NCBI GenBank assembly: GCA_950054155.1
Contig: CATLOT010000004.1
Span: 71,098-135,097, forward strand
Source: an uncultured Bacteriovoracaceae bacterium
GTDB lineage: Bacteria; Bdellovibrionota; Bacteriovoracia; Bacteriovoracales; Bacteriovoracaceae
Reading direction: 5' to 3'
DNA: 64,000 nucleotides
The first letter of the stretch is position 1, and every line of letters starts with the position of its first letter. Of the stretch, positions 56,027 to 64,000 are shown piece by piece. A model generated the notes under the pieces. The model was not told the origin of the DNA, ran no database searches, and worked only from the letters and a program-made list of their open reading frames with translations. The translations under genes were made by a program, and so were the position numbers.

Positions 56027-56719
56027 TTAAATTTTTGTGTCGCGTCTATTGGGGACAACTCTTTCTAGGCGCAGGGTGAGATCCTCAACGACTCTGCGAT
56101 GAAAGCCCGGCTCTTCATGACGGAGTTTTTCTTTATATTCAGCGATAGATACTCTTTCATAGGTCATCTCAAGAGTTTTAAAGAGCCTAAGTTTCCTCTC
56201 TCCCGGACTTTGAACATGGTGCAGGCCACCAGAGTAGCCAAGCAGGAGGTAGCCAGAATCGGTTTTAAGAAGAATATCTGCAATGCCACTTTTGATGGTC
56301 ATGGGATTTCCATGCTTATCAAGACCGTTGGGGCGCATCATTCTTCCCTCTGGTGCGATCACTATGAGGCTGCCTTTTTTTACCTTATCCATAAAGTCAT
56401 TCCATGAGCTGTCCCTCTTTCGCGTGATGCTGATGATCTGGGGGAAAACGACTTTATAGATCTTACCGACAATGGGGCGTTCCAGGGTGATATCAGCCCC
56501 CGGTAAAACGGCGCGGTGGATATTGTTAAAGTAGAAATGATTGGGAAGCGAAGAAAAGAGGAGTGGCTCAAAGAGGCTCGTGTGATTGAGAAAAGCGAAG
56601 ACATTAATATTTTCCCAAAAATCGGGGGTTGGATTGAGGATTTTTAATTCAAGTTGGTAAAACAGCTTTGAAAAAACTTTTACGGCCAAGGCTATCGTTA
56701 AGCTAAAGAGGTATTTCAT
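56027..56719 (-). CDS. Lysophospholipid/glycerol-phosphate acyltransferase (PlsC-like) family protein
   Basis: 'FAFLNHTSLFEP' (an HX4D-type box with E) and 'VIAPEGRM'. N-terminal TM helix. Confidence 0.5.
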   Translation of the reverse strand: MKYLFSLTIALAVKVFSKLFYQLELKILNPTPDFWENINVFAFLNHTSLFEPLLFSSLPNHFYFNNIHRAVLPGADITLERPIVGKIYKVVFPQIISITRKRDSSWNDFMDKVKKGSLIVIAPEGRMMRPNGLDKHGNPMTIKSGIADILLKTDSGYLLLGYSGGLHHVQSPGERKLRLFKTLEMTYERVSIAEYKEKLRHEEPGFHRRVVEDLTLRLERVVPNRRDTKI

Positions 56720-57453
56720 TATTTGTAGCCTCTAACATAATAGAGAATTTTAAGTCTTTCCTCTCGTTTCGGAAGGTAAGGGTGAGGGGAGGTTTCAAAT
56801 TTATGGTATTCCATTTTACGGGGCATGAACTCTGTACCGAGAATATCTTGTGCCGTTTTAAAAGCACTGTCTTCGTAAGAGTTTTCAATAGTAATGATAT
56901 TGACCCCATTATAATTCTTTTTGAGGTATTGGAATTTGCCAAGTTCCGCCTGATCAAGGGGTGCATCTAAAACATTTGTTTCACTCTTTTGATAGGAATT
57001 GGAGTAGTAATAACTAATCTCTCTAAGATAGGGATGCTTGGGAGTAAATATTAAATTGGTGACCCCTGGCAGAGTTTTAGCCACCTTAGTTTTCTCTCTT
57101 ATATAGTATAAAAAAGAGTCACTTTTAAATGAATTAAAGTAATTTATTAGACCGAGCAGACCAAAGAGTGCAAAGAGGCCTTGGCGTAGCAAGGGGGACG
57201 TTTTTAAGTCCACCATGGCACAGTATATTCCTAGAAAACCAAAAGGGAGGACAAAGGTATAGTGCTCCCAGGTTCCTAGTCTAATTCCCTTGAGAGAGAG
57301 AGTCATGAGAACTCCCATGGGGATGAGATAGGAGAGAGAGAGGAAAAAGAAGAGAGGCTGCTTTTTAGCTATTGCTTTAAAAAGAAGGTAAAAGGCGGCA
57401 AGAAAGCTCAAAGAAATAAAAAGAATAAGAAAGAGATTGAGGGCTGTGTTCAT
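56719..57453 (-). CDS. Membrane protein (4-5 TM + soluble C-terminal domain), possibly the distal half of a split GT-C-like transferase
   Basis: ATGA overlap with the upstream gene. Hydrophobic N-half and a soluble roughly 110-aa tail. Confidence 0.4.
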   Translation of the reverse strand: MNTALNLFLILFISLSFLAAFYLLFKAIAKKQPLFFFLSLSYLIPMGVLMTLSLKGIRLGTWEHYTFVLPFGFLGIYCAMVDLKTSPLLRQGLFALFGLLGLINYFNSFKSDSFLYYIREKTKVAKTLPGVTNLIFTPKHPYLREISYYYSNSYQKSETNVLDAPLDQAELGKFQYLKKNYNGVNIITIENSYEDSAFKTAQDILGTEFMPRKMEYHKFETSPHPYLPKREERLKILYYVRGYK

Positions 57454-58280
57454 CTCGAACTTCCTCTTGGCTTTTCAATTTCTCTTTCTCTTACAGCTCC
57501 TAGTAAAAGATACTCATAGAGAAAGAGCGGGTCCTTGTGGTCAACCTTTTCCCAGTGTTGGGCCAAGGGATTTGAAAAGCGTGGGTTTGCGACCCAGTAA
57601 AGAAGACCAGAGCATGAGAAGAGAAGAATAAGATTAGCAAGAAAGAAGGTCTTTATATTCTTTAAGTTTTTAAGAGGAATGAGTGAGCCTAATTGCAAAA
57701 GAGTAATCAGAATAAAGTAGTAACTGACACTCAATCCACAAAAGTTAACAAGAATAAGTGCCTTACTCATCCTTTTCTTTTTTAAGGAACTGAAAAATAA
57801 GCAGATACTCAAGAAGGCGAAGAGTAAGGTGAAGGAAGTTGGGGCGATAATACTTCCCATTCCATACCACCAGGTTCCAAGAGAGGTGAAGAGAGTCATA
57901 AGGGCCGCTTCACTTGAATGGGTTAAGCTCTTAAAGAAGGAGAAAACCTGCCAGAGGCAGAGAATATTGAGGATGAGAAGGGGAAGTCTCATTAAAATTT
58001 CATTTTCTTGAGTAATGAGGGACCAACCTCGATAAAAATAGAGCAACCCAGCAGGTTGAATCCGGAGGTATTCTCGCCAGAGGTTATCCCAACGACTTCC
58101 TTCCATCGTGTCTTGAGTAAAAATACTCACTTTAGAGGGAGGAGGGGTGTGGAAATAGCGAGTTACTTTTATCTCTTCAAAATGAAAAGGCCTATTAAGG
58201 GTAGGGATATAAAGGAGAAGAAATATACAACCCGTGATAAGAAGAGGAATAAGGGTATCTAAATTTCTTCGCTTTACCAT
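57450..58280 (-). CDS. Polytopic membrane protein, GT-C (ArnT/PMT-like) N-terminal-half-like
   Basis: About 7 TM helices with an early periplasmic loop 'RPFHFEEIKV'. Weak resemblance only. Confidence 0.35.
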   Translation of the reverse strand: MVKRRNLDTLIPLLITGCIFLLLYIPTLNRPFHFEEIKVTRYFHTPPPSKVSIFTQDTMEGSRWDNLWREYLRIQPAGLLYFYRGWSLITQENEILMRLPLLILNILCLWQVFSFFKSLTHSSEAALMTLFTSLGTWWYGMGSIIAPTSFTLLFAFLSICLFFSSLKKKRMSKALILVNFCGLSVSYYFILITLLQLGSLIPLKNLKNIKTFFLANLILLFSCSGLLYWVANPRFSNPLAQHWEKVDHKDPLFLYEYLLLGAVREREIEKPRGSSR

Positions 58281-58289
58281 ACTATGATT

Positions 58290-59294
58290 TTACCAGAGAT
58301 CATCATCGAGCAGAACTCCTGTCGCGAGATTGACCTTTTGAGGGAGCACTCCCTTCATATTGAGTGCGTCATAAAATGCTTTGACGAGGATGAGATTAGA
58401 AATTTCTGTCTCTTTATAGTTTCCTTGAAACTTGTGGTCTTTCCAATTCGCCCTTTGGTTTATGGTCTTTTTCAAATCAAAAGAAGAGTAGGGGCTATTA
58501 ATTGGTTTTTGAAGTTGTTCCCTAATTGAAAAATAATGGACTCCACCAATCCCTATCACTTCTTTATGAGAAATAGCGTCTCGAATTTCCTCTGGGACAT
58601 CAACGCTTGCTATTTTCTTTGCTAGGTTTTCAGCCCACTTTGCAGTGTGATGACCAATAGGATTAGGACTACCACGTTGTCTCCCTTGATAATGGATAAT
58701 ACGATTCTTAAAGCTTACAGAGGCAAGTTTTCCTAAGTAAGTGTGAGGAGTATTTCCTATGAGGGTCGTAATTTGCATGCTCCCTCCACCAATATCCCAA
58801 ACAACAATGTCGTCTTTTGGCTTTTGAGTAAGGCCTACGGCACCCCAAAAACCTAATGTTGCTTCTTTCTTTTGATCAATAATGGTAATGGGAAAGTTGA
58901 CTCTCTTTGATAAGGACTGAACAAAAGCACCTCCATTAGAAGCCTGTCTAAAAACTTCAGTGGCAACTGCAGATATTTGAGTTCCCGACTTTCTAAAGGG
59001 AGAAAGGAAAAGATTTAATTCTTCACTGACTGAATTAAGCATTGTTTCAGGGATAGTATTCTTATGAAGGTGAAGGGATTCTTTGTATTTGAAAGGGAAG
59101 TTTTTTTCCTTGATGACGGACAGAATTTCTTTCTTGCAGCGGTCCACCTTAGCGATAATTACTTTAGTGCTTCCCGATCCCATATCAAGAGCGGCTCTTT
59201 CTTCATGGCAGTGGAAAGGGGTCTTATTGTGAGGAAGTTGGCTACATGAGAGAAAGAAAAAGAATGAAAAAATGATAAAAACTTGAGTATTCAA
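58290..59294 (-). CDS. ASKHA-fold phosphatase of the Ppx/GppA - CD39 NTPDase type, predicted lipoprotein
   Basis: Lipobox 'FFFFLSCSQ'. 'ALDMGSGSTKVIIA', 'AVATEVFRQASNG', 'QKKEATLGFWG' and 'VWDIGGGSMQIT'. Confidence 0.55.
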   Translation of the reverse strand: MNTQVFIIFSFFFFLSCSQLPHNKTPFHCHEERAALDMGSGSTKVIIAKVDRCKKEILSVIKEKNFPFKYKESLHLHKNTIPETMLNSVSEELNLFLSPFRKSGTQISAVATEVFRQASNGGAFVQSLSKRVNFPITIIDQKKEATLGFWGAVGLTQKPKDDIVVWDIGGGSMQITTLIGNTPHTYLGKLASVSFKNRIIHYQGRQRGSPNPIGHHTAKWAENLAKKIASVDVPEEIRDAISHKEVIGIGGVHYFSIREQLQKPINSPYSSFDLKKTINQRANWKDHKFQGNYKETEISNLILVKAFYDALNMKGVLPQKVNLATGVLLDDDLW

Positions 59295-60445
59295 TTGGCC
59301 CTCGCTTCGTACTCCTTCTTATATCGTTTCATTGTATCTAGCGCGTAAACTTTGTCTATGGCAGGTAACGAATGAATGAGGGGGCTTAGTACTCGATGGG
59401 ATAAACAAAGTTCGTCCCAAGTGTAGGTGCTAAGCATATGGCCGATTATTTCACTTCTCTTTTCTTGAGAAAGAGTGAGAAGGGAGTGCTCAGAGGGACG
59501 GTAGCAAAAGGTAATAAAGGGATGAATGTTGCGGCTTAAACAATAGTGAAGAGCATTGGGAATTTCACGCCAATTATCTTTTTGAACCAAGAAGTTAAGG
59601 TTCATATGTAATGGAGTTAATTGGTTCTTAATTCTCTTTTCTTCATACTCTCTAAAGTGATCAATTGTTTTGAGAACTTTGGAAAGAATTCCTGGTTTTC
59701 TAATTTTGTGGTAGGTCTCTGGATCAAAACTATCAACCGAAAGAATAATATTTTTTATTTTAATTTTTTCAAGGGCACTTTCAACTCTCGTATTCCAGTT
59801 CCAATGAGCATTTGTTGTAATCGACCAGAGACAATTCGGATTCACAAGGGAGACTTCATCAATGAGCTTATAAGTGTCTTGCTGTAAGAAGGGCTCACCC
59901 GAGAGCATGTCAATTTCTCTTAGGTGAGGAAAGAGCTCTTTTCTCGCTGGATTCCAAAAATTTTCATCCGTATAGAATCCATTTGGTAATTCCCATACGT
60001 CACACATCTGGCATTGGAGATTGCAAAAGCCATTGAAGTTTGCCGTTAGCCGTAAAGGGCTTGAAGTTTTAGCTTTCAGAGTTTTGGGATCGTCAGGGAA
60101 CATTTTCCCTAGCTGGGGACAGAGATTACAGCCCTGATCATCAATCTCAGTTCGGCAAGTTCTAGCTCTCCCTTCGAGGAACTCTTGGCGCCACTGTTGT
60201 GCCTTCGTTCCATTCCAAATCTCTTGCCAGGTTTGCTCTTTAAGATTTCCAAGAGAATGTTCTGTACCCTTGTGGCGGCAGAGACCAACGGAACCATTTG
60301 GTTCGAGGATAATATTAACAAAGGGCATGAGACAAAATTGCTGGGGAGAAAATCCCCCAGCAATGATTTGATTGATATTTACTTGAACTTCTTCAAGTCT
60401 GTTTTGAATTAAGGGATGATTGAGATAAGCGCTCTTTTTACTCAC
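59291..60445 (-). CDS. Radical SAM enzyme with an N-terminal Twitch/SPASM-like cysteine motif
   Basis: CX3CX2C 'FCNLQCQMC' at residues 141-148. N-terminal 'C38-x12-G-x4-C56 ... LGNL...W.EIW ... C97-x8-C106-x2-C109'. 4-bp and 8-bp overlaps with its neighbours. Confidence 0.7.
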   Translation of the reverse strand: MSKKSAYLNHPLIQNRLEEVQVNINQIIAGGFSPQQFCLMPFVNIILEPNGSVGLCRHKGTEHSLGNLKEQTWQEIWNGTKAQQWRQEFLEGRARTCRTEIDDQGCNLCPQLGKMFPDDPKTLKAKTSSPLRLTANFNGFCNLQCQMCDVWELPNGFYTDENFWNPARKELFPHLREIDMLSGEPFLQQDTYKLIDEVSLVNPNCLWSITTNAHWNWNTRVESALEKIKIKNIILSVDSFDPETYHKIRKPGILSKVLKTIDHFREYEEKRIKNQLTPLHMNLNFLVQKDNWREIPNALHYCLSRNIHPFITFCYRPSEHSLLTLSQEKRSEIIGHMLSTYTWDELCLSHRVLSPLIHSLPAIDKVYALDTMKRYKKEYEARAN

Positions 60446-60893
60446 TCTTAAGTTTTGACTCTAGCTCCTCAATCTTTGTCGCCTGTTCATCAACTTTGGC
60501 GCTGAGTTCTTTAACGGCTTCAATCAGCATAGGAGCGAGGTGAGCATAGTTAACGTATTTGTAACCTGTTGCATCTGTTTTCACAGCGAGCGGAACGACT
60601 TTTTCTAGCTCTTGGGCCATTACCCCTGTTTGTTCCTCTTGAGAAAAGTTCTTCTCTGGGAACTCGCTAGTTTTATAGTGGTATTTGAACGCTTGAATTT
60701 TATTAATATTTTCGAGGCTATTTTCTAAAGGATAAACATCTTCTTTAAAACGAATGTCACTTCCAGCAAAGACATCGAGATAGACACTGTCATTGAGGAC
60801 TTCATTCTCAATTTCTTCTAGGTTGAAGTCATTGATTCCACCAAATTGATAGGGTTTCTTACCGTCTTTTTTATCATCAGTTGAATGTGCCAT
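60438..60893 (-). CDS. Miniature Peptidase_S74 (intramolecular chaperone auto-processing) domain protein, 151 aa
   Basis: 'AG-S45-DIRF-K50-EDVYPL', 'IQAFKYHYK', 'GVMAQELEKVVP', 'KYVNYAHLAPMLIEAVKEL' and a terminal coiled coil 'KVDEQATKIEELESKLK'. Only 44 aa precede the catalytic Ser. Confidence 0.7.
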   Translation of the reverse strand: MAHSTDDKKDGKKPYQFGGINDFNLEEIENEVLNDSVYLDVFAGSDIRFKEDVYPLENSLENINKIQAFKYHYKTSEFPEKNFSQEEQTGVMAQELEKVVPLAVKTDATGYKYVNYAHLAPMLIEAVKELSAKVDEQATKIEELESKLKSE

Positions 60894-60943: not shown

Positions 60944-60949
60944 ATTATA
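60944..60949 (-). promoter_or_regulatory. Perfect TATAAT -10 hexamer about 50 nt upstream of the S74 gene
   Basis: The minus strand reads 'AAAAGGTTATAATG'. The -35 region is weak. Confidence 0.3.
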
Positions 60950-61034: not shown

Positions 61035-61832
61035 TTATGAGCCAGTTTTATAGGCTCCTCGATGGAGATTCTTGTAAAGGGCGAGGGCTTTTTTAACATT
61101 GCCCCCTTGGAAGGCAAGTTTGCGTTCGTGAATAACCAGGGCCTTATTACAAATTTGAGAGAGGAGCTCTGCATTATGGGAGATGAAGAGGACTGCGCCC
61201 GACTCATAAATGACCTTGTGCATTCGCTCTTTCATTTTATCTTGGAAGAACTCATCGGCTCCATCATAGACCTCATCAAGGATGAGCAATTCTGTCGGCC
61301 TTGCTGTGACAACGGAGAGGAAAAGTCGTGCTTGCATACCTTTTGAGTAGGTGTAAAAAGGAGCTTCTTGAAATTTTCCAAGATCTGAAAAGACGAGGGC
61401 TTCTTCAATAACGTCACGAAGCTCACGCTTAGAGAGAGAAGGAAAGAGAAGTTCTCCAAGAAGATAGGCGTTTTCTTTGCCAGTTAGGCTAAAGTGAATG
61501 GCACTTGCCGTAGAAAATACAGCCTGAATATTGTCTGGCTTATTTATGATTCCCTGCTGGGCCATAATCATTCCAGCAATACAGCGGCACAAACTCGTTT
61601 TACCCGAGCCATTTTCACCAATGACGGCCATGATATCGCCCTTTTCCATGGAAAAACTTATATCCTCTAAGACCGGATGAACATTCTTGCGTTCAAGCAA
61701 AGTTTTAACTGGAGCCCGTAAAAGCTGAACGAAAGCATCTCTTACAGTGTGACCTTTTTGGAGGTCGAGATCAAAAGAGAGGTGTAAGTTCTTTACCTCT
61801 AGTAATGGCTTAGATGTAGTAGTAGAGGTCAT
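61035..61832 (-). CDS. ABC exporter ATP-binding protein, Wzt/TagH/KpsT (polysaccharide/polyol-phosphate export) type
   Basis: 'GENGSGKTS', 'LTGKENAYLLGELL', 'YSKGMQARLFLS' (the YSxGM signature variant of this class) and 'LLILDEVYDGADEFF'. Confidence 0.8.
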   Translation of the reverse strand: MTSTTTSKPLLEVKNLHLSFDLDLQKGHTVRDAFVQLLRAPVKTLLERKNVHPVLEDISFSMEKGDIMAVIGENGSGKTSLCRCIAGMIMAQQGIINKPDNIQAVFSTASAIHFSLTGKENAYLLGELLFPSLSKRELRDVIEEALVFSDLGKFQEAPFYTYSKGMQARLFLSVVTARPTELLILDEVYDGADEFFQDKMKERMHKVIYESGAVLFISHNAELLSQICNKALVIHERKLAFQGGNVKKALALYKNLHRGAYKTGS

Positions 61833-62571
61833 TTTTTCTTTTCTTCCAGTAGAGAAATGAGATTAAGGCAAAGAATAAACTTATGAGAAAAGCCTTAATA
61901 AGAGACATCCAAAAGTAACTTGGTTCAAAGTTATAAACAGCACTTCTAAAGGCTTCAACGAGATAAAAGAGAGGATTCATGTCTATGATCCAACGATACT
62001 CGGTTGGAACAAACTCTACAGGATAGAAAATGGGAGTGATGAAATACATGATATTGAGAATAAATGTGAGAACAAATTTAGTGTCTCTGTAAAAGACATT
62101 CATGAGGGAGGCAAGAGAGCTAATACTTGCTATTGAAATTAGTAATACAAGGATGGGAAGGGGGAGATAATAAAACGCGGATTGTTGATTCTCCGTAAGT
62201 ATCATCATGGGAATTAAGATGATAACGAAGGCAATGAGAAAGTTGAGAAAATTATCAAGGACCTGACAGAGAATGAGGAGAAAGGGATTTATTCTAAATC
62301 CTCTCAAAAGATTATGAGAATTGTAGAGGTAGGGAATACTCATCTCCAAAGTGCTTGTAATGAAGATCCAAGGGAGTAGGCCACCCAGTAAGAAGAGGCT
62401 ATAGTCAGGTAATTCAATTTTTAAAATCTTTCTAAAGACAACACTTTGAACCGAATAAAGGATTATGGGATTGAGGATCACCCAAAGAAATCCTGCAAAG
62501 GTTTTACGGTATCGGGCTTTCATATTAGCAAGCGTCAACGATACTAATTGTCGTGAAAAGATTTGAATCAT
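61810..62571 (-). CDS. ABC-2 type exporter permease (Wzm/TagG-like)
   Basis: Six TM helices and N-terminal 'ANMKARYRKTFAGFLWVILNP', typical of ABC-2 permeases. 23-bp overlap with the ATPase gene. Confidence 0.75.
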   Translation of the reverse strand: MIQIFSRQLVSLTLANMKARYRKTFAGFLWVILNPIILYSVQSVVFRKILKIELPDYSLFLLGGLLPWIFITSTLEMSIPYLYNSHNLLRGFRINPFLLILCQVLDNFLNFLIAFVIILIPMMILTENQQSAFYYLPLPILVLLISIASISSLASLMNVFYRDTKFVLTFILNIMYFITPIFYPVEFVPTEYRWIIDMNPLFYLVEAFRSAVYNFEPSYFWMSLIKAFLISLFFALISFLYWKKRKNDLYYYI

Positions 62572-62575
62572 TATT

Positions 62576-63073
62576 TTACTTTACCAGAAGAACTTTCATT
62601 TTTTGCCATAAGCTTAAGTTTTTATTTTTTACTAAGCCTATTATTTGATCGGGTTTAAGGGGGTAGTCATTTTCACCACGAAACTTGAGGCACTGAGTTA
62701 TATATTGTTGATGGGTGTGGTCTATTTTGGTGAGGAAATGGACATTTAATCTGCCAGCTTGGTCAAAGACGATGATATCAAAATGCTTGAGCTCTTTAAG
62801 ATCCGCGATCTTTTGAACCTCAATGAGGTCTCCAATCTTGATGAGAGGAACCATAGAGTCACTGACGACTTTAAGTTTAACCACACTCTCATTAACAAGC
62901 TGTTTTTTTAGTATTTGTAGGTCAAATGTTCTCTGATCCTCTTTGGCTACCATAATCGCCATGATATCATAGGAGAGTGAAATTAGCGGTAGTAAAAAAA
63001 CAAAATCAATCTTCCTGGCGAAGTTGCCAGAGTATAACGAGTAATCTTGAACTCGCCTACGAGGAGTTTTCAA
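62576..63073 (-). CDS. S24/S26-family (signal-peptidase-I/SipW-like) serine peptidase; start uncertain
   Basis: 'VVSDSMVPLIKIGDLIEV' (SM...GD box) and 'FDIIVFDQAGRLNVHFLTKI'. TTG 63073 gives an N-terminal TM helix. The alternative starts ATG 62962/62953 would avoid overlap with the divergent GT gene. Confidence 0.55.
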   Translation of the reverse strand: MKTPRRRVQDYSLYSGNFARKIDFVFLLPLISLSYDIMAIMVAKEDQRTFDLQILKKQLVNESVVKLKVVSDSMVPLIKIGDLIEVQKIADLKELKHFDIIVFDQAGRLNVHFLTKIDHTHQQYITQCLKFRGENDYPLKPDQIIGLVKNKNLSLWQKMKVLLVK

Positions 63074-64000
63074 AGGCTCTTACTTTTTCTATATCCGATG
63101 AGGCCACGATCCCTGAGCTGGATAGGTTAGCGAAAGAAATCTTTGAGAATAAAGTTACTCATCTTGCGTGGGTCGATCATTATCCTCATCCTGGTGCATT
63201 TTTAGAATATCTGAAGAATAATTTTTCCGATGAATTGCAAGAGAATCCTTTGAAAGTGGTCATTCACATTTTTGGAGACTTTATTCTTCATAGTCCTCAG
63301 TGGTTTAAGCACTTTTCAAAATGGAATGGAGAGAGTTTAAAAATTCAGTTAGTGGCCGCTTCCCATAGACAGGGGAGGCTTGTCGATCAATTCCTGAAAG
63401 AAAGTGGATGTGAGATCATTCCCTTTCCCGTTAATAAAAGTGAATTTTCTTTTGATCAGAAGTTGAGAATAAGTAAGCGAAAGTCACTCAACGTAGAGGA
63501 AGAGGAGCACCTCTTTTTTTACAGCGGTCGACTAAGCTATCAAAAAAATATTTTTGATATTATAAATGGCTTCTGCCAATTCTATAAAATGACGAATTCC
63601 CACTGTCGCTTATTAATAGCCGGTCCAATGGATGACCTCGGAATTCCCTATATTGGAAAAGAAGCTCTTGAAGGGACATTCTATTTTCATTGGGAAGAAT
63701 GCATGAATTCCTTACCCGAAGGTATCCGAAATAAAATTACCTATCTTGGAAACGTTACTCCTTTGGAGTTAAAAGAATACTATTGTGCCGCTGACACCTA
63801 TCTGAGTATGAGCTGTCATAATGATGAGGATTATGGAATGGCCCCGGCAGAAGCTCTGATGTGTGGACTTCCCTGCATTCTCAGTGATTGGGGAGGATTT
63901 TCTTCCTTTAAGCACTATTTACCAAATGTTGTTACAACGGTTCCGATTAACCTTAGCCAACACCGCCAAGCTCCAGATAATTTGAAGGTGACAAAGGCTA
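62977..64000 (+). CDS. Glycosyltransferase family 4 (GT-B), 3' partial (runs off window end); start uncertain
   Basis: My translation of frame 1 is open from 62965 to 64000. It contains 'LFFYSGRLSYQKN', 'LLIAGP' and the EX7E box 'EDYGMAPAEALMCGLPCILSDWGGF' (first Glu at 63826, about residue 284 from GTG 62977). This ORF is not in the supplied track because no stop lies in the window. Confidence 0.7.
   Translation, partial: MKLAVVKKQNQSSWRSCQSITSNLELAYEEFSKALTFSISDEATIPELDRLAKEIFENKVTHLAWVDHYPHPGAFLEYLKNNFSDELQENPLKVVIHIFGDFILHSPQWFKHFSKWNGESLKIQLVAASHRQGRLVDQFLKESGCEIIPFPVNKSEFSFDQKLRISKRKSLNVEEEEHLFFYSGRLSYQKNIFDIINGFCQFYKMTNSHCRLLIAGPMDDLGIPYIGKEALEGTFYFHWEECMNSLPEGIRNKITYLGNVTPLELKEYYCAADTYLSMSCHNDEDYGMAPAEALMCGLPCILSDWGGFSSFKHYLPNVVTTVPINLSQHRQAPDNLKVTKA

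Follow-up and report, generated by a model that had tools for sequence, protein, structure and literature searches.

The S74 protein and its N-terminal segment

The window analysed here, a 64,000-nucleotide stretch of contig CATLOT010000004.1 from an uncultured Bacteriovoracaceae bacterium, contains a gene for a 151-residue protein that consists almost entirely of a Peptidase_S74 domain, a chaperone known from phage tailspikes and from MyRF that trimerises and then cuts itself off. This gene belongs to a cluster, of which the window holds a small peptidase gene, an ATP-binding cassette (ABC) ABC-2 type permease gene, an ABC ATPase gene, the S74 gene, a radical S-adenosylmethionine (radical-SAM) gene that we call NtwA, and, in the opposite direction, the first part of a GT4 glycosyltransferase gene, which is cut by the window edge at position 64000 (Table 1). 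The S74 open reading frame (ORF) begins with ATG, preceded at a distance of 6 nt by the ribosome-binding site GAGGA. The GTG start codon of NtwA at 60445 lies inside the S74 gene. The resulting overlap of 8 bp had been noted in the original prediction, which was made from the DNA letters without database searches; it is real, and the same overlap is found between the called genes of a 90%-identical relative.

Table 1. Features of the S74 locus in the window (positions in the 64,000-nucleotide stretch)
Feature	Position	Strand	Basis or remark
Short S74 protein, candidate precursor, 151 aa	60438..60893	-	ORF call, PF13884 match, 128 homologues
Conserved pre-cleavage segment, codons 15-44, Y-x-FGG-I-x-x-FNLEEIE-x-EVLNDSVYLDVFAG	60762..60851	-	Column entropy; same segment after PqqD in fusions
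Complete S74 intramolecular-chaperone domain, residues 45-151	60441..60761	-	Pfam, profile, AlphaFold, Foldseek; C-terminal helix 116-150
Ser45 codon AGT, predicted nucleophile; predicted scissile bond Gly44/Ser45	60759..60761	-	Invariance and analogy to Bd3182
Lys50 codon AAA, predicted general base of the S-D-x-x-x-K dyad	60744..60746	-	Invariant in alignments
Stable hairpin with UUUUGU behind it, within the radical-SAM gene at its 5' end	60337..60364	-	Folding energy, comparison of loci
Radical-SAM enzyme with N-terminal SPASM/twitch domain (NtwA)	59291..60445	-	Pfam Radical_SAM and SPASM, residues 38-98
ABC transporter ATPase (Wzt/TagH-like)	61035..61832	-	Domain matches
ABC-2 type permease	61810..62571	-	Domain matches
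Small S24/S26-like peptidase, 128 aa, candidate trimming peptidase	62576..62962	-	Domain matches, alignment
GT4 glycosyltransferase, first 341 aa, cut by window end	62977..64000	+	69% identical to the 430-aa GT4 of locus L006 from residue 1
Ppx/GppA-fold predicted lipoprotein	58290..59294	-	Domain matches; 9/61 loci

Residues 45-151 are a genuine and complete S74 chaperone domain with an intact catalytic dyad. Pfam placed PF13884 (Peptidase_S74) on residues 45-104 with 54 bits, above the curated cut-off of 22 bits (E=2e-14). The family profile aligned over residues 40/45-148 with the S74 chaperones 6f45 (S16 long tail fibre), 7dc3 (MyRF ICA), 8jov, and 3gud (phi29 gp12). An AlphaFold model, built for a single chain on 87 homologues, had a pLDDT above 90 over residues 45-151 and a C-terminal helix, and its top Foldseek matches were 7dc3 (TM 0.61-0.67), 3gud, and 3gw6. 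The IAQE and VNY blocks of S74 domains are also present, and both Ser45 and Lys50 were invariant in the alignments of 87 split sequences and of 82 sequences fused to PqqD (described below). The original prediction of a nearly pure S74 protein with a serine at position 45 and a lysine five residues further on was therefore correct, down to the codons. In Bd3182, the crystal structure was traced to A781 and self-cleavage occurs at the catalytic S782 (PMC10769870). Because that structure stops directly before the catalytic serine, we predict that the cut in the 151-residue protein would fall between Gly44 and Ser45.

Only 44 residues precede Ser45, and the large trimeric passenger that is typical of S74 domains is absent. 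These residues had been quoted correctly beforehand, together with the statement that they form no beta-helix or fibre. We found in them neither a signal peptide nor a cysteine nor beta-helix repeats, and they were modelled at low confidence.

A protein search identified 128 homologues of 138-205 residues. The homologue clusters numbered more than 200 in total, and all of those with names belong to Bdellovibrionota. Those short homologues that carry a name, among them BMS_3130 of Halobacteriovorax marinus SJ, came from Halobacteriovoraceae, Bacteriovoracaceae, and related Bdellovibrionota. A genome scan gave 56 loci, in which the lineage-naming records were all from Bdellovibrionota, three records were labelled "bacterium" and one "Deltaproteobacteria bacterium". 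The 151-residue protein is thus a member of a family that is conserved over its full length, and not one of the C-terminal fragments of disrupted prophage tail-fibre genes that the original prediction had considered as the outcome that would speak against it.

The most conserved part of the family lies in front of the cleavage site. Mean column entropy was 0.64 bits over residues 15-44 versus 1.88 bits over residues 51-151, and the consensus of the segment is Y-x-F-G-G-I-x-E-F-N-L-E-E-I-E-x-E-V-L-N-D-S-V-Y-L-D-V-F-A-G. Residues 1-14 are variable, hydrophilic, and lysine-rich; in the window protein the N-terminus is rich in lysine and aspartate. When the segment was compared as a profile with solved structures, no PDB homologue was found. 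The strongest selection acts on the 30 residues before Ser45, which is the opposite of what a remnant without a passenger would show. Such strong conservation also points to a conserved product, for example a cofactor-like or structural glycopeptide, rather than to a variable antibiotic.

Gene neighbourhood and PqqD fusions

Sixty-one non-redundant loci were compared after their ORFs had been clustered independently of annotation, and 31 of them had full flanks (at least 7.5 kb on each side). A radical-SAM gene was present in every full-flank locus (Table 2), which bears out the pairing of a short S74 protein with a radical-SAM enzyme. The content of the cluster around the S74 gene is conserved, while the order of the genes is heavily shuffled between loci, suggesting functional coupling rather than inherited synteny. 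Among the immediate neighbours of the S74 gene in all 61 loci, NtwA was directly downstream in 21 and PqqD was adjacent in 17. Free PqqD genes numbered 37; the S74 gene was the direct neighbour of 17 of them and a second radical-SAM gene (NtwB) that of 13, and the order NtwB-PqqD-S74 was found in several genomes, including that of H. marinus SJ. Up to six radical-SAM genes occur in one cluster. NtwB is a full member of NF033640 (twitch domain-containing radical SAM) with 255 bits, and the free PqqD proteins resemble the lasso-peptide, ScmD, PqqD, and GeoRSP peptide chaperones in NCBIfam matches. None of 554 intergenic ORFs of 18-69 aa was common to at least three loci, so there is no competing candidate for a precursor.

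Table 2. Genes found near the S74 gene in the 31 loci with full flanks
Gene	Loci
Any radical-SAM gene	31/31
PqqD, free or fused	26/31
GT4 glycosyltransferase (group a)	26/31
Radical SAM NtwA (~373 aa; the gene of the window)	23/31
NodU/CmcH carbamoyltransferase	23/31
Radical SAM NtwB (~442 aa)	22/31
DegT (sugar) aminotransferase	20/31
Unknown gene, ~326 aa	20/31
ABC-2 permease	20/31
Unknown gene, ~336 aa	19/31
ABC transporter ATPase	19/31
S24/S26-like peptidase	18/31
Amidohydrolase	10/31

The conserved segment is confined to two kinds of protein. An exhaustive profile search covered 162,850 S74 proteins in total, and only 33 representatives matched the segment before the serine. Eighteen of these are short like the protein of the window, and the other 15, of 241-293 residues, begin with a PqqD domain, which a linker connects to the same conserved segment and the S74 domain behind it. 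A second search extended these PqqD-S74 fusions to about 85 protein clusters of 217-296 residues in Pseudobdellovibrio, Bdellovibrio spp., and other Bdellovibrionia, some of which are named 'PqqD family peptide modification chaperone' by NCBI. In these searches of S74 proteins, the segment was seen either alone or after PqqD and in no other architecture. Some long S74 proteins also gave matches that reached slightly beyond the serine on its N-terminal side, but these have ordinary fibre N-termini.

The S74 gene is fused in 10 of the 61 loci, and these loci have no free PqqD gene; NtwA lies directly behind the fused gene in five of the ten. The AlphaFold model of one fusion had a mean pLDDT of 87.6. 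Its N-terminal domain has the fold of a RiPP recognition element (RRE; RiPP, ribosomally synthesised and post-translationally modified peptide), with Foldseek matches to TigE (8vpo), MadB (9g04), TruD (4bs9), SuiB (5v1q), and ThcOx (8pz5), and its C-terminal part matches the MyRF ICA. The linker and the first half of the segment were modelled as a strand and a helix with a pLDDT of 85-94, compared with 39-49 for the same residues in the stand-alone protein. Judged from these confidence values only, the model fits a docking of the segment onto the RRE.

One Bdellovibrionia-type locus with a fusion (L065, fusion P0141) additionally contains genes for a UbiA prenyltransferase, a GMC oxidoreductase, two GDSL-like lipases, a QueC-like/DUF7411 protein, and a class-V aminotransferase, besides the usual radical-SAM, carbamoyltransferase, and glycosyltransferase genes. 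Judged by this gene set, some versions of the system may involve lipid-linked or prenylated chemistry.

The searches also returned S74 proteins of other designs from other lineages. Two or three tandem S74 domains occur in P0169, P0142, P0151, and P0149, and P0169 has a signal peptide and three repeats. P0207, P0236, and P0243 are short S74 proteins with ordinary beta-helix stubs. These tandem and stub proteins indicate that the S74 domain is used beyond the textbook single C-terminal copy.

A candidate peptide-maturation pathway and its alternatives

We give an even chance to the interpretation that the 151-residue protein is a RiPP-like precursor in an RRE/radical-SAM pathway, and that its S74 domain is a follower which trimerises and releases the segment at Gly44/Ser45. 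We propose that recognition and modification fall on residues 15-44. The maturation pathway so predicted is conserved in Bdellovibrionota, and it would be a form of RRE/radical-SAM peptide maturation with a precursor design that has not been described before. Among open-access papers, we found none that links an S74 domain or an intramolecular chaperone with radical SAM, PqqD, or RiPPs, although this absence is not proof.

In this proposal, the 151-residue precursor would be synthesised in the cytoplasm, and a PqqD-family chaperone, encoded by a separate gene here and fused in cis in Bdellovibrionia, would bind residues ~15-44. PqqD would then present the segment to radical-SAM enzymes with an N-terminal twitch domain, one of whose genes is the one that overlaps the precursor gene. 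The GT4 glycosyltransferases, the DegT aminotransferase, and the NodU/CmcH carbamoyltransferase would probably decorate the segment. The C-terminal 107 residues would gather three chains and then cut themselves off at Gly44/Ser45 by means of Ser45 and Lys50. N-terminal trimming could fall to the small Ser/His S26-like peptidase, and export to the ABC-2 transporter. The comparisons establish the S74 domain, its intact dyad, the pattern of conservation, the association of the genes, and the fusions, while binding, modification, cleavage, trimerisation, trimming, export, and the kind of product are predicted. A more specific version of this proposal is possible, although we put it somewhat short of even: that the system is a new RiPP or cofactor class in predators, in which the precursor is trimerised by S74 and releases itself, carries its own RRE in cis in one clade, and yields a trimeric, radical-SAM-modified peptide, probably glycosylated and carbamoylated, that is trimmed and exported, with self-cleavage serving as a maturation checkpoint.

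The domain itself is the same as that of the S74 chaperones of K1F endosialidase (3gw6), phi29 gp12 (3gud), T5 (4uw8), S16 (6f45), MyRF (7dc3), and Bd3182, as judged by hidden Markov model (HMM), profile, and predicted fold, and the likeness extends to the S-D-x-x-x-K dyad, the IAQE/VNY blocks, and the C-terminal helix. Known S74 domains trimerise and cut just before the serine, and by analogy the same would be expected of the 151-residue protein. Unlike them, it has a passenger of 44 residues with no beta-helix, fibre, or enzyme, appears to be cytoplasmic without a signal peptide or a virion context, and is encoded in a radical-SAM/PqqD/glycosyltransferase cluster, sometimes as a PqqD fusion, with a passenger that is more conserved than the chaperone.

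The cluster in turn resembles those for pyrroloquinoline quinone (PQQ; PqqA/PqqD/PqqE) and mycofactocin (MftA/MftB/MftC and MftF). It shares with them a small ribosomal precursor of strong conservation (here a candidate), a PqqD-family chaperone beside a radical-SAM enzyme with an auxiliary Fe-S (SPASM/twitch) domain, and a peptidase and glycosyltransferases in the same cluster. In contrast to those systems, the candidate precursor here carries a 107-residue domain predicted to trimerise and cleave itself, the twitch domain of the radical-SAM enzymes is N-terminal (NF033640), radical-SAM genes number as many as six per cluster and sugar genes are numerous, and the RRE is fused in one clade to the precursor and not to an enzyme. 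The PqqD match to TIGR03859 (27.6 bits) was below the cut-off of 46, and the radical-SAM genes were far below the PqqE and MftC cut-offs. No NCBIfam model matched the S74 precursor, and no system-specific model matched the PqqD or radical-SAM genes. RiPP precursors with large non-core domains are known, such as those with NHLP/Nif11 leaders, the bottromycin precursor with its follower peptide, and the borosins (OphMA, in which the core is fused to its own methyltransferase). As in these, the precursor here is far larger than the processed part and a folded domain in cis would aid its own maturation, but the domains in cis are a self-cleaving phage-type chaperone and, in one clade, an RRE, neither of which we found described for RiPPs.

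Several observations weigh against the precursor interpretation. The segment contains no cysteine, which excludes the common thioether chemistries, and no target residue can be named. NtwA of the window matches NF033640 in part only and, with 92.9 bits, stays under the cut-off of 170. The window, which extends 3.1 kb beyond the S74 gene on its upstream side, contains no PqqD gene. Locus L006 encodes a 90%-identical S74 protein, and there two unknown genes, a carbamoyltransferase gene, a second GT4 gene, PqqD, and NtwB follow in the rest of the cluster; we infer by analogy with this relative that the lineage of the window has a PqqD gene as well. The contact between the RRE and the peptide is read from model confidence values only. 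In the fused relatives, the predicted S74 cleavage would free about 150 residues and not a short peptide. What had been predicted as a radical-SAM-coupled peptide gains considerably from the adjacency of the genes, from PqqD (adjacent in 17 and fused in 10 of the 61 loci), and from the conserved segment, whereas its free 44-residue peptide is not expected in the fused relatives. Finally, the GT4, GT2, DegT, and carbamoyltransferase genes and a Wzm/Wzt-like exporter give much of the cluster a sugar-type character, so the radical-SAM enzymes could act on a sugar instead of a peptide.

The sugar-type genes, which are interleaved with the S74 gene, together with the Wzm/Wzt-like exporter also favour an alternative in which the S74 protein is a scaffold or adaptor. 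A trimeric S74 hub, with PqqD bound or fused to it, would organise the radical-SAM and sugar enzymes, its N-terminal segment would be an unmodified docking motif, and a glycan or small molecule would be exported by the ABC-2 transporter. Very high conservation is typical of interaction motifs, and the PqqD fusion shows association, not catalysis. However, PqqD-family domains are established as chaperones that bind peptides for radical-SAM maturases, and a radical-SAM gene, a PqqD gene, and a small gene together form the classical arrangement around a precursor. Moreover, an invariant Ser/Lys self-cleavage dyad would have no obvious purpose in a permanent scaffold. We therefore regard the scaffold as unlikely. 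Another alternative, which is really a sub-case of the precursor interpretation, is a cofactor-like precursor in the style of PQQ or mycofactocin, in which a few residues, for example near Tyr38 or the new C-terminus Val-Phe-Ala-Gly, are cross-linked and excised, the rest including S74 is discarded, and the sugar genes glycosylate the product. The precursor is conserved phylum-wide like PqqA and MftA, while antibiotic precursors are hypervariable, and the cluster offers PqqD, radical-SAM enzymes with auxiliary clusters, a peptidase, glycosyltransferases, and, in 10 of the 31 full-flank loci, an amidohydrolase. On the other hand, the matches to PqqD/PqqE and MftB/MftC are all below the equivalog cut-offs, the E-x3-Y motif of PqqA and a C-terminal Val-Tyr are missing, the entire 30-residue segment is conserved and not two residues, and an exporter is unusual for an intracellular cofactor. 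On these grounds the cofactor-like version is quite improbable.

The protein might also be a minimal surface-fibre stub, or what is left of a phage or MAT-type (mosaic adhesive trimer) tail fibre after everything but the chaperone has been lost. S74 domains of Bdellovibrio normally terminate fibres of about 1000 residues, and the S74 subgroup of MAT fibres has a signal peptide, a conserved beta-rich N-terminal domain of ~130 residues, a length of ~1000 residues, and an S74 end (PMC10769870). Some family members are labelled 'tail fiber domain-containing protein' by NCBI, and short S74 proteins with beta-helix stubs do exist in other lineages. Membership in the MAT fibres was rejected since the 151-residue protein has neither a signal peptide nor the 130-residue N-terminal MAT domain and its N-terminus is hydrophilic. 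A prophage or phage remnant was likewise rejected: no phage genes were found near the S74 gene in the inspected neighbourhoods, and matches in phage databases were weak (at most 79 bits) and restricted to the S74 domain. In addition, the length is stable at 138-205 residues over the 128 homologues, and the N-terminus is conserved more strongly than the S74 domain. A fibre stub is consequently very improbable and close to refuted. The original prediction had joined this stub to the neighbouring glycan-export genes as its second choice; given the many sugar genes, a glycoconjugate version of that idea may apply.

If the protein is a self-releasing precursor, the system would join two separate fields, the self-cleaving trimerisation chaperones of phage tailspikes and MyRF and the RRE-guided maturation of peptides by radical-SAM enzymes. 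Such a precursor, presented as a trimer and removing its own follower, would be the first of its kind, and the fusions would be the first natural fusions of an RRE and its substrate. A portable, protease-free release module for peptide engineering would be conceivable. The system would also imply that Bdellovibrio-like predators make a phylum-wide product that is not yet known, and since it is present in the cultured H. marinus SJ (BMS_3130), it can be tested directly.

Transcription signals and neighbouring genes

The upstream gap of the S74 gene had been described as containing a perfect TATAAT. The hexamer is present (60949..60944), but it has no usable -35 hexamer, a consensus scan called no sigma-70-type promoter upstream of the S74 gene, and the region has seven promoter-like sites compared with 8.3 expected from shuffles. 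The hexamer therefore carries no weight as a promoter. A scan of the whole window against Rfam gave no match.

A perfect 11-bp stem with a 6-nt loop lies inside the 5' end of NtwA, and the UUUUGU behind it consists of conserved Phe-Cys codons. Its folding energy is -16.9 kcal/mol, compared with -3.9 +/- 2.8 for other 40-nt windows of the radical-SAM gene. Hairpins of other sequences were found at the same place in five loci (L012, L006, L055, L049, and L014), and terminator-like hairpins lie directly behind the S74 stop codon in L018-L020, while the hairpin is weak or absent in about ten other loci. The hairpin may be a partial terminator or attenuator that raises the ratio of precursor to enzyme mRNA, though it is not universal. 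In many RiPP operons, the ratio of precursor to enzyme transcript is set in this way.

The small peptidase has an invariant serine in S-M-x-P and an invariant histidine, resembles archaeal/SipW-type signal peptidases, and lacks an N-terminal membrane segment. The mechanically called ORF (62576..63073, reverse strand) encodes 165 aa from a TTG start and runs into the start of the divergent GT4 gene. Because comparison with relatives places the GT4 start at 62977, we placed the peptidase start at the ATG at 62962, so that the two divergent start codons are only 14 bp apart.

The unknown genes of ~326 and ~336 aa (for example L006:4651-5652(-) and L006:5656-6651(-)) are nearly always paired beside a GT4 gene. 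The first of the pair has an invariant G-L-S-D-L-D-L motif reminiscent of nucleotidyltransferase-fold enzymes, with a weak match to 1ylq (E=0.053). Profile searches of the two against PDB sequences gave no significant match, and they had no Pfam match even at E<=1 and no NCBIfam family.

The gene for the Ppx/GppA-fold protein is found behind the radical-SAM gene in the closest relatives only, and its membership in the cluster is therefore doubtful. The N-terminus of its product (MNTQVFIIFSFFFFLSCSQ) reads as a predicted lipoprotein signal ending in Cys. In the stretch 56719..59294 on the reverse strand, it is followed by a PMT_2/ArnT-like membrane protein and another membrane protein, and a PlsC-type acyltransferase lies at 56027..56719. 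Together, the genes from Ppx/GppA to PlsC, which occur in the closest relatives only (9 of 61 loci), look like an envelope-modification module.

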